DNA from: Torpedo marmorata
Taxonomy: Eukaryota
NCBI GenBank assembly: GCA_977017645.1
Contig: OZ360223.1
Coordinates: forward strand, 19,716,001-19,780,000
Length of the DNA: 64,000 bases
Direction: 5' to 3'
Of the stretch, positions 32,501 to 39,699 are shown in pieces; position 1 is the stretch's first letter, and every line of letters begins with the position of its first letter. The notes below the pieces were generated by a model. That model was not told the origin of the DNA. It made no database searches and was given only the letters and a program-made list of their open reading frames with translations. The translations under genes were made by a program, and so were the position numbers.

Positions 32501-32934
32501 ATCCCCATAGTGTGGTTAAAATGCACTCCCCCTCAGTGTAGACACAGGACACACCCCTCTTTATAGATATAGTACACCCCCTCAGTGTAGATACAACACA
32601 CACTCCTCAGTGTGGATAAAATGCACTCCCCCTCAGTGTAGCTACAGTACACTCCCATAAGCATAGATACAGTACACCCCCATAGGTATAGATACAGTAC
32701 ACCCCCTCAGTGAGGATACAATTCACTCCTCCAATGTGAAGACACAATACACCCCTCTGTGTAGATTTCAATACACCAACCTCAGTGTAGATAAATAACA
32801 CCCCCTCAGTGTAGATACAATATACCCCCTCAGTGTAGATAGAATACACACCCTCAGTGTAGATACAATACAACCCACTCAGTGTAGATACATTAAACCA
32901 TCCTCAGTGTGGATACAATGCACTCCCCCTCAAT

Positions 32935-32938
32935 GTAG
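32935..32938 (+). other. Target-site duplication GTAG (left copy)
   Basis: caatGTAG|TGTTA on the left and TAACA|GTAGatac on the right. Removing the element and one GTAG restores an intact monomer, ctcaatgtagatacaatacacc. Confidence 0.85.
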
Positions 32939-33821
32939 TGTTATGGACCATGACTGACCATTTGGACTGCGGACGGTTAGCAGGAAGGATGAATTCTTTT
33001 GGAGTATACACTGGGGCCATGTACCGAAAGAGTTAACTTCCCCAGCTACTTGGTGTACCCAGACAAGATACATTGTTGCACTTTTCGCGTACCCAGACAG
33101 AGAGAGAGAAAGAGAAAGACCAGAGAGAGAGCCGACAAGATACATTTGTTTCACTTCTGCAAAAAGCAGGGGCAGATCTCTGCAAAGCAGACAGTTGTGA
33201 GTTGCAAGGCTACAGAAAACAGCCAGATCCAGTTTTGTGTGCAAAAGTCAGAGAAAGACTGACAGAATAGCACATGGCCTCCTGTCTCAGAGAAAAATTC
33301 TGAGAAAAAGCACTTTCTGTGGAGAACAGGCGTGAGATCAGTGAGACTAGCTGTGAGATTCAAGCATACGCCTAAATCAGTGGTATACTGATCTGGAACT
33401 TGCAATCCTTATGAACCTACAAGAAGGGGACGTCATCAGAGAAGAAAACAAGTATTTGTAAGCATAACAGTCATTGTCACTCTCCAACGTTCATTCAGAA
33501 GTACTTCTACCAGACCCAGAGCTGAAGTGAAGCCTGAACTTAGAGTGTGAATCTTATGGACTGTGTATCTTTCGTTTTTTTGACTGACTTGTTTTTTTAT
33601 GACTGACCTGGGGTTTTTGGGGAAAGTTTTTCCATTTTTACATAAGGGTTGGGCACAGACTGTAATGGTCTGGGCTTTACACACACACACATACACCTTT
33701 TAGATAAGAATAGAGTTGATTGTTGTGAAATTATATGTTTACTTGTGTTTAATAAATAATAATTTCAATTTTACCCATTTTGCATTGCGTCTTCTGTCGT
33801 TGCTGGTTTGATTTTGTAACA
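32939..33821 (+). repeat. 5' LTR (883 bp)
   Basis: Begins TGTTATGGACC, ends TTTTGTAACA. Direct repeat of 38045-38944. AATAAA at 33751-33756. Confidence 0.97.
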
Positions 33822-33824
33822 AAT

Positions 33825-33848
33825 TGGGGGCTCGTTGCGGGATTTGAA
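33825..33848 (+). promoter_or_regulatory. Primer-binding site complementary to the tRNA-Pro 3' end
   Basis: TGGGGGCTCGTTGCGGGATTTGAA, separated from the 5' LTR by 3 nt (aat). The canonical tRNA-Pro complement is TGGGGGCTCGTCCGGGATTTGAA. Confidence 0.9.
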
Positions 33849-33952
33849 TCAAAATCCATCTTGGTAATTGAAGGAATCCTAGTTTGGTTTAAGGCATTCC
33901 TTTTGTAAAGCTAATTAAAAGCTAGTGTGTGTGTAACAAAAAACCAGCAACA

Positions 33953-35210
33953 ATGGATGTAGAACATTTTTTGGAATCACCTGAACCTGATACTTTAAAA
34001 AAGGCGAAAAAGTAGCAGTTAGTGGCTATAGCAACAGAGTTGGGCATTGCTTCTGTAAAATCATCTATGAAAAAGGCAGAGATTGGGAGAAAAATAGTCA
34101 AATACTATATAAAAGAAAAAAAATTTGAGGAGAGCATGTTAGAGCAGTTTCCCAAGGGTAAACCTTCTGAAAACATACAGTTGGAATTAAAGAAATTAGA
34201 ATTGGAGGCAGCCAGGGAACAAAAGGAATTGGAGGCAGCCAGGGAACAAAAGAAATTAGAGGCAGACAGGGAACAAAAGGAATTGGAGGCAGCCAGAGAA
34301 CAAAAGAAATTAGAGGCAGACAGGGAACAAAAGAAATTAGAATTAGAATTCGAATTGGAACGAAGGAAATTAGAATTGGAGGTAGCCAGAGAACAGAAGA
34401 GATTAGACTTAGAGAACGAGGAGAAAAATAGGATATATATGCTGGAAAAGATAAAGTTGGAAAATGAGAGGAGACAAGAAGAGCGCCAAGATCAAATTCG
34501 TCATCCTGCTGAGGTGTTTTTGGCTAGTAGAGAAGTTAGGTTGGTTCCTCCATTTGAGGAGGCAGAAATAGATAAGTACTTCCAACATTTTGAGAAAGTG
34601 GCTGTGAAATTAAAATGGCCACAAGACCAATGGTCTCTTATGTTACAAAGTGTAATAAAAGGAAAAGCTCAGCAAGCTTATTCTACTCTTACCACAGAGC
34701 AAGCTGCTGATTATGAAACGGTGAAAAAGGCTATACTCCAGGCTTATGAGTTAGTTCCAGAGGCTTATAGACAGAAGTTTAGAAATCTAAAAAGATCAGC
34801 AGCCCAATCTTATACAGAGTTTGCCTATGAAAAAGTTGTGTGTTTTGACAGGTGGTGCACATCTAAGGAAGTAAACAATGATTACAATCAATTGAGAGAA
34901 TTGATAATTATCGAGGAGATAAAAAGGTGTGTTCCTGAGGATATTAAGGCATACTTAGATGAAAAGGAGGTGAAAACTTGGCAAGATTCAGCTAAGTTGG
35001 CAGATGGATATGCTTTAACCCACAAGCCTAAGTGGACGTCAGGTAGAATTTTCCAAAAGGTCACGGTGGATAATCAGAAGCAAGTGGAAAGTAAATTTGG
35101 AAGTGGTGTTAAGGAAAGGGATGAAGGAAAGTGGAAAAGGGAAAACAATTCAGGTCCCATTTGCCACTACTGTAGAAAGGCTGGTCATATGCTAGCAAGC
35201 TGTCCAGTGT
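33953..35210 (+). other. gag: Gag region: coiled coil, capsid with SCAN-like C-terminal part (~34712-35011), CCHC zinc knuckle (35162-35203)
   Basis: E/K/R/L-rich helical stretch; LVPPFEEAEIDKYFQHFEKVA...WPQDQW; YELVPEAYRQKFR...LRELIIIEE; CHYCRKAGHMLASC fits CX2CX4HX4C. Confidence 0.88.
34199..34333 (+). repeat. Coding minisatellite in gag: 5 x 27 bp (ELEAAREQK / KLEADREQK)
   Basis: The unit gaattggaggcagccagggaacaaaag and variants are repeated in frame five times. Confidence 0.92.
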
Positions 35211-35329
35211 TGAAAAAGAAGAGAGAAAAGGATGCAACACCTAATGCTTGTATTCAGAGTGAGAAGATGCATAACACCCAGGAAGGAGATAAATTTACTG
35301 ACAAAGTTAAAGATGTATTTAAACCTTTT

Positions 35330-35620
35330 GTGACTGATGGTTTTGTTTCAGTTAAGGCAGGATCAAAACAAGTTCCAGTGAAAATCTTGCGAGATACTGG
35401 AGCTGCTCAGTCACTTGTGTTAGATAGTGTCTTGGAATTTTGTGAAGCTACTGACACCGGTGACATAAATTTAATTAAAGGAATTGGTGGTGAGGTAGAG
35501 TCCATTCCTTTGCACAAAATAGTATTGGACTCAGACTTGGTGGAAGGACCAGTTATAATAGGAGTGAGATCAGAGTTGCCAGTAGAAGGAGTCTCACTGT
35601 TGTTAGGCAATGACTTGGCC
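35330..35620 (+). other. Retropepsin-like aspartic protease domain
   Basis: ILRDTGAAQSL with the catalytic Asp codon at 35393, and C-terminal LLLGNDL. Domain limits are approximate. Confidence 0.88.
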
Positions 35621-36059
35621 AAGGGTAAAGTAGTTCCTGCAGTGCGAATGACCACTAAGCCAGTCATTGATAAGTCAGAGAAAGACTCTGATATTTATCC
35701 GGCATGTGCCATAACCAGGGCCATGTCTAAGAAAAATGTCACTGTAGAGAAGGCAGTGGAAAATAACTTGCTAAAAGAAAAAGACACTGATAATCAAGAA
35801 AACCTGGAAAAGGTTGAGCTATCTCCTATATTACACCCATCCGCTGATAAGACACCTAAAGGCACAGATTTGTCACTATCCCGACAGGAGTTAATAGCAA
35901 GGCAAAAGGACGATCCAGATCTTGCTGAGGTGAGGGATAAGGTTCTCTCTGAAGAGGAGATTAAAAAGGTGCCAGTAGGGTATTATGAAAAAGATGGGGT
36001 GTTGATGAGAAAGTGGAGACCACGTGATGTTCCTGCCAATGAAGAATGGGCAGTAGTGC

Positions 36060-37135
36060 AGCAGGTTGTGATACCTAAAGTATATAGGGATGCAATAATA
36101 ACTTTGGCTCATAGTACACCCTTAGCTGGTCACCTTGGGGTGAAGAAAACTATAAGTAAGATAATGAAACAGTTTTATTGGCCCAGTTTGAGAAGGGAGG
36201 TTGTAAGCTTTTGCCGGGCCTGTCACACTTGTCAGGTGGTGGGTAAACCTAATCAGGGTCCCCCGGTGGCACCCTTGCAACCTATCCCTGCTTTCAGTGA
36301 GCCTTTCTCAAGAGTAATTGTGGACTGTGTTGGCCCATTGCCCAAAACCAAAGCGGGGAATGAATATTTGTTAACAATTATGTGTGCAGCCACCAGATTT
36401 CCAGAGGCCATTCCTCTGAGAAACATAAAAGCAAAGTCAATTGTAAAGGCTATGGTAAAGTTTTTCACCTTGGTAGGTTTGCCAAGGGAAATTCAATCAG
36501 ATCAGGGCAGTAATTTCATGTCAGGCGTTTACCAACAAGTGGTTGATGGACTGGGAGTTAAACAGATTGTATCCTCTGCGTACCATCCAGAAAGTCAAGG
36601 GGCTTTGGAGAGGTTCCATTCGACTTTGAAAACAATGATTAGAACCTATTGTAGTGAGAAGGAAAAGGATTGGGATGAGGGGGTGCATTTGTTGTTATTT
36701 GCAGCGAGGGAGTCTGTCCAAGATTAGCTTGGTTTTAGTCCATTTGAGTTAGTTTTCGGACATGAGGTGAGAGGTCCTTTTAGATTATTAAAAGAACAGT
36801 GGATTAATCGTGATGTGCATTTAAATCTGTTAGATTATGTTTCCAAATTTAAGGATCGGTTACATAGGGCTTGTGAGATGGCAAAGGAGAATTTAAAGGC
36901 CACTCAACGGAGAATGAAGGTTTGGTATGATCGAAAGGCGAAGATGAGAACTTTTAAACCTGGTGAGAACGTATTAGTTCTGTTTCCCATCCATTCAAAT
37001 CCTCTTAGGGCTAGATTTTCAGGACCCTATAGAGTTAAATCAAAAATTAATTATGTCACCTATGTCATAGAAACACCTAATCGCAGACGAGACACACAGG
37101 TCTGTCATGTGAATATGATTAAGCCATATTTTGAA
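36060..37135 (+). other. Integrase domain (HHCC, D-D35-E, GPY/F module), interrupted by TAG at 36725
   Basis: AHSTPLAGHLG...CRACHTC; IVDCVGP (D at 36323), QSDQG (D at 36500), LERF (E at 36608; 35 residues between D and E); GPYRV...HVNMIKPY. Confidence 0.93.
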
Positions 37136-37224
37136 CAGGTGCCACACAAAGGGACTGAAAATATACCAGAGGTGCTGGTTATTGACAGGGGTAAGGAGGA
37201 GACAGATAGAACCAGTTTCAGAGA

Positions 37225-37912
37225 GGGTCATGGGACTGTTAATTCTCGGAGTTATGTCGTAGGACAGGGGAAGTTGGCGCCAGTAGAGGCAAAGGTTGTC
37301 GCTATTTCCGAGTTCCCTGTTCCAACTGGTAAGAAAACTCTGAGGAGGTTCCTGGGAATGATTGGCTACTACCGCAAGTTCTGTAAAAACTTTGCTGATC
37401 TTGCGCTCCCTCTCACAAATTTGCTTAGAAAGAAAGAGAAATTTGTATGGTCAACAGGTTGTCAGGAAGCATTTGTCAAATTGAAAGCCATGTTATGCCA
37501 CCAACCTGTGCTTAAGTCACCTGATTTAGAACAGTCGTTTTCTTTAGCCGTGGATGCGAGCGATGAAGCTGTGGGTGCGGTGCTGTTACAGAAGAAGAAC
37601 GAAGAGGACATTGCCCATCCGGTATCCTACTTCTCGAAGAAGTTCAATGATCATCAAAGGAATTATTCAACTATAGAGAAAGAGTTGTTGGCTCTTGTGT
37701 TGGCTCTACAACATTTTGATGTGTATATCTGTACAGCTCAAAAACCACTCATAGTGTATACTGACCATAATCCATTGGTTTTTCTTTGTAAAATGAAAAA
37801 TAAGAATCGACGGTTGTTGAATTGGAGTCTAATTTTACAAGAATATAATTTGGTAATCACTCATATAAAAGGGAGAGATAATGTCATTGCTGATTGTCTT
37901 TCCAGATGTTAA
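37225..37912 (+). other. RT thumb/connection remnant plus Ty3/Gypsy RNase H
   Basis: YVVGQG...LRRFLGMIGYYRKFCKNFA...W...CQEAF; AVDASD (D at 37553), YFSKKF, NYSTIEKELLA, YTDHNPL, NVIADCLSR. Confidence 0.92.
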
Positions 37913-38032
37913 ACTTTATCAATGAAAATAGTTCATATTTTGTATTTGTGGATGAACATTGTAGATTTTGTTTATATTCTGACACCTCACTTACTTTCCT
38001 AAATTTTGTTCTTGCAGACCAAAATTTCCTTT

Positions 38033-38044
38033 GAGGGTGGGAGG
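38033..38044 (+). promoter_or_regulatory. Polypurine tract
   Basis: GAGGGTGGGAGG directly abuts the 3' LTR and follows a T-rich stretch. Confidence 0.88.
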
Positions 38045-38944
38045 TGTTATGGACCATGACTGACCATTTGGACTGCGGACGGTTAGCAGGAAGGATGAAT
38101 TCTTTCGGAGTATACACTGGGGCCAGGTACTGAAAGAGTTAACTTCCCCAGCTACTTGGTGTACCCAGACAAGATACATTGTTGCACTTTTCGTGTACCC
38201 AGACAGAGAGAGAGACAGAGAAAGACCAGAGAGAGAGCCGACAAGATACATTTGTTTCACTTCTGCAAAAGGCAGGGTCTCTGCAAAGCAGACAGTTGTG
38301 AGTTGCAAGGCTACAGAACACAGCCAGATCCAGTTTTATGTGCAAAAGTCAGAGAAAGACTGACAGAATAGCACATGGCCTCCTGTCTCAGAGAAAGATT
38401 CTGAGAAAAAGCACTTTCTGTGGAGAACAGGCGTGAGATCAGCGAGACTAGCTGTGAGATTCAGGCATACGCCTAAATCAGTGGTATACTGATCTGGAAC
38501 TTGCAATCCTTATGAACCTACAAGAAGGGGACGTCATCAGAGAAGAAAGCAAGTATTTGTAAGCATAACAGTCATTGTCTCTCTCCAACGTTCATTCAGA
38601 AGTACTTCTACCAGACCCAGAGCTGAAGTGAAGCCTGAACTTAGAGAGTGAATCTTGTGGACTGTGTATCTTTTGTTTTTTTGACTGACTTGTTTTTTTA
38701 TGACTGACCTGGGGTTTTTGGGGAAAGTTTTTCCATTTTTACATTAGGGTTGGGCACAGACTGTAATGGTCTGGGCTTTACACACACACACATACACCTT
38801 TTAGATAAGAATAGAGTTGATAGACGTTTATAGTGGGGTTAATTGTTGTGAAATTATATGTTTACTTGTGTTTAATAAATAATAATTTCAATTTTACCCC
38901 TTTTGCATTGCGTCTTCTGTCGTTGCTGGTTTGATTATGTAACA
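38045..38944 (+). repeat. 3' LTR (900 bp)
   Basis: Begins TGTTATGGACC directly after the purine tract, ends TTATGTAACA. Differs from the 5' LTR by about 18-20 substitutions and two indels (+22, -5). AATAAA at 38874-38879. Confidence 0.97.
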
Positions 38945-38948
38945 GTAG
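38945..38948 (+). other. Target-site duplication GTAG (right copy)
   Basis: Matches 32935-32938. Confidence 0.85.
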
Positions 38949-39699
38949 ATACAATACACCTCCTCAGTGTAAATACAATACACTCACCTCAGTGAAGATA
39001 CAGAACATACCCGTCAGTGTAGATACAATACACCACCCTCAGTGTAGATACAATACAGCCCCCTGAATGTGGATGCAATGCATACCCTCAGGGTGGATAA
39101 AATGCACCCCCACTCAGTGTATGCACAATACACCACCCTCTTTGTAGATATAGTACATGCCTCAGTGTAGATACAATACACTCCAACCAGTGTGGATAAA
39201 ATGCACTACTCCTCAGTGTAGATACAGTACACCCCCCTCAGTATAGATACAGTACAACCCCCTCAGTCAGGATACAATGCACTCCTCCAAAGTGAAGACA
39301 CAATACACCCCCTCAGTGTAGATACAATAAACCCCCTCAGTGAGATACAGTACACCCCCTCACTCTGGATACAATACAACCCCTCAGAGTAGATACAATA
39401 GACCCTCCTCAGTGTTTTCTACAATACACACCCTCAGTGTGGATACAATGCGATCCCCGTCAGTGTAGATAGAATATACCCCCCTCAGTGTAGATACAAT
39501 AAACCTCGCTTAGTGCAGATACAATACACCCCCCTCAGCGTGGATACAATACACTCCCCCTCTGTGTAGATTCAGTACAACCCCTCAGTGTAAATACAAT
39601 ACAACCCCGTCAGTGTGGATACAATGCACTCCCCCTCAGTGTAGATACAGTAAATCCCCTCAGTGTAAATACAATACACCCCCTCAGTGTAGATACAGT

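Follow-up and report, generated by a model that had tools for sequence, protein, structure and literature searches.

A Gmr1-type LTR retrotransposon of Torpedo marmorata whose majority form lacks the reverse transcriptase polymerase core and recombines with RT-containing siblings

Described partial LTR elements and the present locus

Elements of the TR-GAG type have lost reverse transcriptase (RT) as well as integrase (IN) and kept Gag (and protease, PR). The systems closest to the element reported here are as follows. In mouse IAP 1-delta-1, an endogenous retrovirus with an in-frame deletion, the non-autonomous form dominates new insertions over the full-length one, and a cis-acting fusion protein has been reported (PMC6466679). 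Deleted ATHILA elements, with a pol deletion of about 3 kb, lost RT, RNase H and integrase together and kept gag-protease (bioRxiv 10.64898/2026.03.20.713144), and the ORFs retained in pol-less Athila are under purifying selection (PMC2410132). For wheat RLG_Quinta/Cereba and RLG_Sabrina/WHAM/Wilma, semi-autonomous partners have been proposed that give Gag and borrow RT; in Quinta and Sabrina, nothing beyond Gag or Gag-protease is retained (PMC11302176, PMC9744471). Finally, the Gmr1 domain order is a SCAN-like capsid followed by PR-IN-RT-RNase H (bioRxiv 10.1101/2025.03.03.638093), and Gmr elements have a single fused ORF (PMC11117352).

The window, a stretch of 64,000 nucleotides of the T. 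marmorata assembly within which all positions below are counted, holds an LTR retrotransposon of 6,006 bp at 32939-38944, with target-site duplications (TSDs), a primer-binding site (PBS) and a polypurine tract (PPT). Its polyprotein is of Gypsy type, with integrase upstream of RT/RNase H in the order of the Pfam matches, and in RT-containing siblings RT sits between integrase and RNase H. A SCAN-like capsid and a single Gag-Pol ORF, both Gmr1-like features, are present as well, and by domain order, capsid and ORF we assign the element to the Gmr1-type Ty3/Gypsy LTR retrotransposons. Gmr1-like elements share this capsid, the PR-IN-RT-RNase H order and the one fused ORF with the window element; here, however, the majority form is without the RT polymerase core (257 codons).

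The likeness to IAP 1-delta-1 lies in an internal in-frame deletion and a non-autonomous form outdoing the full-length one. IAP 1-delta-1, however, loses parts of gag and pol, whereas the present element has Gag, PR, IN and RNase H complete and is missing the polymerase core alone; moreover, and unlike IAP 1-delta-1, the copy number here is in the tens of thousands. With ATHILA, the element shares membership in Gypsy, a defined deletion form that outnumbers the autonomous one, reported recombination and, possibly, purifying selection on the retained ORFs, but integrase and RNase H remain in frame here. The wheat partners are diverged families without RT and integrase, whereas here both forms belong to one recombining population and differ at a single locus. 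The joint loss of RT and integrase that characterizes the TR-GAG, Quinta and ATHILA-deletion types is not found, integrase and RNase H both being retained. As in a non-autonomous partner, the LTR ends, PBS and PPT are those of the RT-encoding family, and many TSD-bearing insertions carry the same defect. By analogy, then, the mode of working would be like that of IAP 1-delta-1 or the semi-autonomous plant Gypsy partners, yet the element is a member of neither type. What sets it apart is the loss of the polymerase alone, its majority of 2.7:1 and the fact that both forms make up one recombining pool. Among the papers open to search, none was found to describe an LTR element that is without the polymerase domain only.

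Architecture of the element and the missing polymerase core

A 25-bp satellite of about 2,580 units (69% matches) fills the window from 1 to 63989, with 98%-identical blocks recurring at a spacing of about 2.1-2.4 kb, and the element is inserted therein. The 4-bp TSDs lie at 32935..32938, inside the satellite, and at 38945..38948; all features between them read on the plus strand. The 5' LTR (32939..33821, TGTT...AACA) and the 3' LTR (38045..38944) are ~98% identical, their alignment showing 19 mismatches and two gaps. Besides the 19 substitutions, the differences are 22-bp and 5-bp indels at approximately 33718 and 33172-33176, respectively. The PPT lies at 38033..38044 and the PBS, which we take to be tRNA-Pro-like, at 33825..33843. 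Across copies, the PBS region (33822-33843) occurs in several common variants that differ in the middle part.

A single Gag-PR-IN-(RT remnant)-RNase H frame of 1319 codons extends over 33953..37912 and is broken by in-frame stops at 34013 and 36725; the window copy itself is dead. The N-terminal part of Gag contains an in-frame 27-bp tandem repeat (34200..34338), coiled-coil-like by inspection, at which the alignments of many copies break, and its unit number seems to vary between copies. There follow the SCAN-like capsid domain (34757..35026; Pfam SCAN, E 1.3e-10), a CCHC zinc knuckle (35159..35206; weak Pfam zf-CCHC matches below cut-off), and an aspartic protease region recognized in translation (35321..35660, limits approximate), for which a Pfam search gave no protease match. 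The D-T-G at 35393 is presumably the catalytic motif of this protease, and the catalytic D is retained in 87 of 88 RT-less copies. Integrase (36071..37133; Pfam Integrase_H2C2, rve and Integrase_p58_C) comprises the HHCC, the D-D-E core and a GPY/SH3 module, the latter matched by Integrase_p58_C and SH3_Tf2-1 at about 36989-37129, and its catalytic residues are retained in 91-94 of 94 RT-less copies. The IN-RT linker begins at 37134, and its first part (37134..37236), which ends at the deletion joint, is found in RT-containing siblings as well. On the other side lie an RT remnant (37237..37520), made up of the last palm strands and then the thumb, and RNase H (37523..37909; Pfam RT_RNaseH, E 4e-34), with the D-E-D-D residues present. 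The best named homologues are from rays, in keeping with a cartilaginous fish as host, and thumb/RNase H is 79% identical to a ray polyprotein with a full RT.

The frame thus passes from the GPY/SH3 module via a short linker directly to the RT thumb and RNase H, and the complete RT with YxDD of an autonomous LTR retrotransposon is absent. Pfam RVT_1 gave no match at E<=1 in either in-frame piece of the window element, and a six-frame motif scan of 32901-39000 returned no YxDD or other RT-core motif on the sense strand and chance words only on the minus strand. Moreover, the end motif of integrase and the YLG motif are 46 residues apart here versus 293-324 (median 301) in homologues, as measured in the 89 of 120 homologous polyproteins in which both anchors were placeable, and the retained RT part aligns to Ty3 RT (PDB ID: 4OL8) only from residue 261 of 478 onward. 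A preliminary description of this DNA had claimed that the RT core was missing in frame while Gag, protease, integrase and RNase H were kept; with no RT-core match, including the RVT_1 profile, and with these domains present, this is upheld.

The same description was right about a large loss without frameshift, though not about its position. Alignment with RT-containing siblings placed the joint at 37236/37237, rather than near 37205-37230 as proposed, and revealed that 771 bp, or 257 codons of RT fingers and palm, are missing in frame after 37236. Among 53 RT-containing copies examined, 50 were measurable, and the deletion is exactly 771 bp in 26 and 769-772 bp in 37 of these. The search for microhomology at the joint also had a positive outcome, in that the deletion is bounded by two imperfect 11-bp direct repeats matching at 8-9 of 11 positions, the left copy lying at 37226..37236. 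The codon phase is identical in both repeats, and this suffices to account for the preserved frame. The EGHG that had been read as the last RT motif is, as the RT-containing siblings show, really the end of the IN-RT linker; it resembles the G-H-x-T codons of RT by chance and provided the microhomology. The deletion likely arose via a template jump between the two repeats in reverse transcription. Splicing, as in a spliced retrocopy, was rejected as the origin, the skipped segment ending in AC..CT, or AC..AC when shifted, with no GT..AG on either strand. Nor do we claim a compensated frameshift at 37186-37188, since stepwise substitution intermediates exist. The Gmr1 gene order permits the loss of RT alone, with integrase remaining upstream in frame.

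In four predicted proteins from other organisms (P0143, P0145, P0156 and P0166), the integrase end is joined to the RT thumb region without YxDD, and these may be RT-less forms of independent origin or gene-model artefacts. RT-lacking predicted proteins elsewhere were not accepted as support; 7 of 144 anchored proteins had a short IN-to-thumb distance, each with a different break, and they are possibly gene-model artefacts.

Abundance of the RT-less form and a common gene pool

Junction-spanning exact patterns of equal length matched at least 15,800 RT-less and 5,866 RT-containing sites in the genome, counts that may include assembly duplicates, and the reversed-pattern controls matched none. 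The RT-less form is thus ~2.7 times commoner than the RT-containing one, at a frequency of ~73%. A second pattern pair gave 11,916 RT-less and 4,067 RT-containing matches. A thumb pattern blind to RT status had 21,605 exact matches, and the first 40 listed of these loci included 27 RT-less (anchor distance 222-235) and 13 RT-containing copies, of which the junction patterns captured 17 and 10, respectively. As a rough estimate, these capture rates suggest true totals of roughly 25,000 RT-less and 7,600 RT-containing copies. Another 1,810 pattern matches were discarded as junction copies, this pattern being wholly left of the joint and counting both forms.

Among 39 window-like RT-less loci, 22 have their own perfect 4-bp TSD, while two are a tandem pair sharing one TSD, nine are same-flank duplicates, four lack a TSD and two are incomplete; their LTR pairs are 96.7-100% identical where measured. 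The preliminary description had left the choice between a one-off deletion and a propagating non-autonomous subfamily. The same junction at many loci with differing flanks and TSDs, the 15,800 junction matches, the RT-containing siblings with the same LTR and the microhomology at the joint establish a propagating RT-less form, and the one-off deletion is excluded by thousands of dispersed junction sites and distinct TSDs. The word 'subfamily' holds for the propagation of this form but not for its separateness, as it is a deletion allele that recombines freely with RT-containing copies. An assembly error was likewise dismissed, the same skip recurring in contigs of two sequencing runs: the 771-bp skip occurs in 27 contigs of run X1 (which may be the source sample) and in one low-depth contig of run X2, which bears another organism label, and was not found in contigs of runs X3 and X4.

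Several arrangements of copies were also seen. Nine small-contig copies (L038-L041, L043, L044 and L067-L069) have identical flanks and no TSD, and represent either an amplified larger repeat or assembly duplicates. Head-to-tail elements sharing one LTR (L060/L061 and L106/L107) occur in both forms, as do runs of junction matches about 5-5.7 kb apart (G000:C1, 5.29-5.30 Mb and 12.28-12.29 Mb). A further RT-containing family (L070-L099), likewise abundant, has the same gene order at about 70-77% DNA identity to the window element. RT-containing loci retrieved by a ray RT query were rejected as siblings, belonging to a different family, and the true siblings came via the thumb pattern.

To compare the two forms, 148 loci and the window were projected on common coordinates, giving 96 RT-less and 53 RT-containing rows (nine duplicates or overlaps were dropped and two anchorless loci lost). 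Besides the window, the RT-less rows consist of 65 position-sampled copies and 30 chosen for window-likeness; the sampled copies are the first listed matches on one contig and not random draws. The two LTRs of a copy diverge by a median of 2.1% in the RT-less form (n=45, range 0-13.9) versus 1.6% in the RT-containing one (n=22, range 0.8-3.2), and as these values are similar (p 0.21), both forms were active together. RT-less and RT-containing copies are about 95% identical, the RT-containing siblings aligning across the LTRs and internal region at about 90-97% and sharing the LTR ends, PBS and PPT.

Here, we noticed that the two groups differ in allele frequency by 0.5 or more at only eight columns, all at 37186-37271. 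For the position-sampled copies, the mean r2 between site and RT status is 0.44 at the 10 sites lying no more than 60 bp from the joint and 0.015-0.029 at the 264 common sites further out, and every one of these 264 shows all four allele combinations, each in at least two copies. Trees of separate regions agree with this pattern. On the junction-region tree, RT status changes three times versus a shuffled mean of 38.1, while on the 5' LTR, gag and two integrase trees it changes 21, 28, 35 and 37 times (shuffled means of 21.8, 29.0, 35.7 and 37.9), and on the thumb and RNase H tree 32 times (shuffled mean of 36.8, minimum of 30). RT status is likewise unlinked to LTR sequence. Of eight odd loci, three are direct recombinants, with RT upstream and two or three RT-less-specific alleles immediately right of the joint; the other five are one copy with RT and one RT-less allele, and four RT-less copies, two of which keep the right-hand repeat copy. 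As suspected recombinants, these four RT-less loci and the RT-containing copy with its single change were set aside. The two loci that keep the right-hand repeat copy attest to a certain amount of recurrent switching, or of recurrent deletion at the repeat. Mixing is free away from the joint, from which we infer frequent template switching in shared particles; co-packaging of both RNAs is thus a likely reading of the recombination, for which gene conversion between genomic copies offers an alternative.

Immediately right of the joint, four consecutive residues at 37241-37252 bear RT-less-specific changes. Where RT-containing copies encode I-Y-L-G, N is found in 61, S in 55, R in 27 and S in 39 of 64 RT-less copies, and none of the 51 RT-containing copies has any of these changes. 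A change from hydrophobic or glycine to polar thus affects four consecutive codons by the joint, while only 27 of 1,133 codons overall show it. Of 95 RT-less copies, 92 carry the derived allele at 37242 and 87 that at 37245, while neither occurs in the 51 RT-containing copies, and because such alleles are common to RT-less copies, we argue for one dominant origin of the deletion. Moreover, the fewer junction changes a copy has, the further it tends to have diverged from its neighbours (Spearman -0.34, p 0.006, n=63); the deletion allele is old, and its junction changed stepwise over time. Release from constraint together with linkage explains the codon changes, and an adaptation of the exposed strand at the junction is possible. 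All told, the deletion acts like a single allele with a frequency of about 73%, old and still evolving, within one recombining population.

The retained proteins and how the RT-less form may persist

Variants common to both forms are subject to purifying selection, omega (against singletons) being 0.11-0.14 in the Gag core, PR, IN and RNase H, and 0.29, not significant, in the thumb. Common variants of the 5+ class number 46 N/65 S in RT-less and 42/64 in RT-containing copies, compared with about 3.4 N per S among singletons, so that amino-acid changes are depleted to the same degree in both forms. Frameshifts present in at least three copies number two in 65 RT-less and two in 53 RT-containing copies (singletons, 106 and 109), and no stop occurs in more than four of these copies. 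The frame is nearly fully open in four of the 65 position-sampled and five of the 30 window-like RT-less copies, as against 0 of 53 RT-containing ones; none of the latter has a fully open frame, hence no current helper is seen in the sample. For variants private to RT-less copies, omega is 0.35 (p 2e-5), or 0.20 at a stricter cut-off, when the 30 window-like copies are included, whereas the 65 position-sampled copies give 0.51 (p 0.06), 0.91 at the stricter cut-off and 1.18 for integrase alone. With private-variant selection being insignificant in the latter set, the frame may owe its conservation to gene flow from RT-containing copies. RT-less copies probably do use their own Gag, PR and IN, though this can be told apart from gene flow only in part. 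That the RNase H remnant plays a role, on the other hand, is unlikely. A 7-bp RNase H deletion (at about 37617-37627, between two 4-bp repeats) was seen in eight RT-less copies, but is rejected as a sign of dispensability; it is not enriched genome-wide, occurring in 662 of 11,916 RT-less (5.6%) and 269 of 4,067 RT-containing matches (6.6%), and represents a slippage hotspot.

We consider it most plausible, with a probability of about 0.7, that RT-less copies are copied in particles shared with RT-containing siblings while supplying their own Gag, protease and integrase. A parasitic RNA that is packaged and copied by helper proteins, its frame kept clean only through imported RT-containing sequence, would suit the lack of differentiation beyond 60 bp as well as the private-variant test in position-sampled copies. 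At ~73% of the pool, however, RT-less copies would find mostly RT-less recombination partners, yet shared stops, frameshifts and amino-acid changes are not in excess among them, and their diversity is no higher than that of RT-containing copies. No other common large deletion was seen among the sampled copies either, most of which keep Gag, PR, IN and RNase H, and such parasitism is on balance unlikely. That every RT-less copy might be a fresh dead-end slippage product of an RT-containing parent accords with the microhomology, two minor junction forms and the 7-bp hotspot recurring in about 6% of copies. It is nonetheless very improbable, as the derived alleles at 37242 and 37245 are common to RT-less and absent from sampled RT-containing copies, and junction alleles accumulate as copy age decreases. 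One-off decay, segmental duplication or assembly error would account for some duplicates, given that 9 of 39 fetched loci have one flank pair in common, but has next to no probability in the face of dispersed sites that number in the thousands and lie on both strands, of TSDs that differ between copies, and of a skip found in contigs of two runs.

More elaborate is a two-component partnership in which the RT-less form, as the main source of structural protein, would correct the 1:1 Gag:RT ratio of the single ORF, and thumb-RNase H would add RNase H in trans. The trans-acting part rests on Ty3 RT, which divides polymerase and RNase H between its subunits (PMC5371799), and the intact RNase H catalytic residues (in 87-94 of 90-95 RT-less copies), the unenriched 7-bp frameshift and the four polar codons by the joint are all in keeping with it. 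Set against this, private thumb/RNase H variants (3 N/2 S) are too few for dN/dS, the frameshift frequencies equally fit age and gene flow, and the Ty3 B subunit has the fingers and palm that are absent here, making the partnership decidedly improbable. Only slightly less doubtful is a bipartite element, with an RT-less majority and full-length minority held as one sexual population at a stable ratio by frequency-dependent selection, where the RT-less form would supply most capsid and integrase, the junction would have been adaptively remodelled to a polar linker, and thumb-RNase H would act in trans with the helper polymerase.

In the favoured reading of shared particles, a template jump between two direct repeats would have created the 771-bp deletion, and translation of the RT-less RNA would yield a Gag-PR-IN-thumb-RNase H polyprotein assembling jointly with the full-length one. 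Both RNAs would then be copied by a small number of RT molecules that the full-length form supplies and that switch between the templates. The deletion would segregate in the manner of a cheater allele, its advantage being the shorter RNA and its limit the dependence on helper RT, with the thumb-RNase H remnant most likely a passenger. This model is plausible because of the single fused ORF of Gmr elements (PMC11117352) and the cis-acting fusion protein reported for IAP 1-delta-1 (PMC6466679).

By arithmetic, 15,800 copies of 5.9 kb make up to about 93 Mb, or 1.5% of the 6.2-Gb assembly, with many copies being interrupted, and about three quarters of the family would escape surveys in which an RT domain is required. 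The family is an unusually clean natural experiment on how LTR retrotransposons cooperate and cheat: there is a single deletion allele, the copies number in the tens of thousands and can be dated, and they recombine freely with the helper. The system allows direct estimates of co-packaging, of the template-switch rate (linkage being lost within about 60 bp) and of the minimum fraction of copies that must supply RT.
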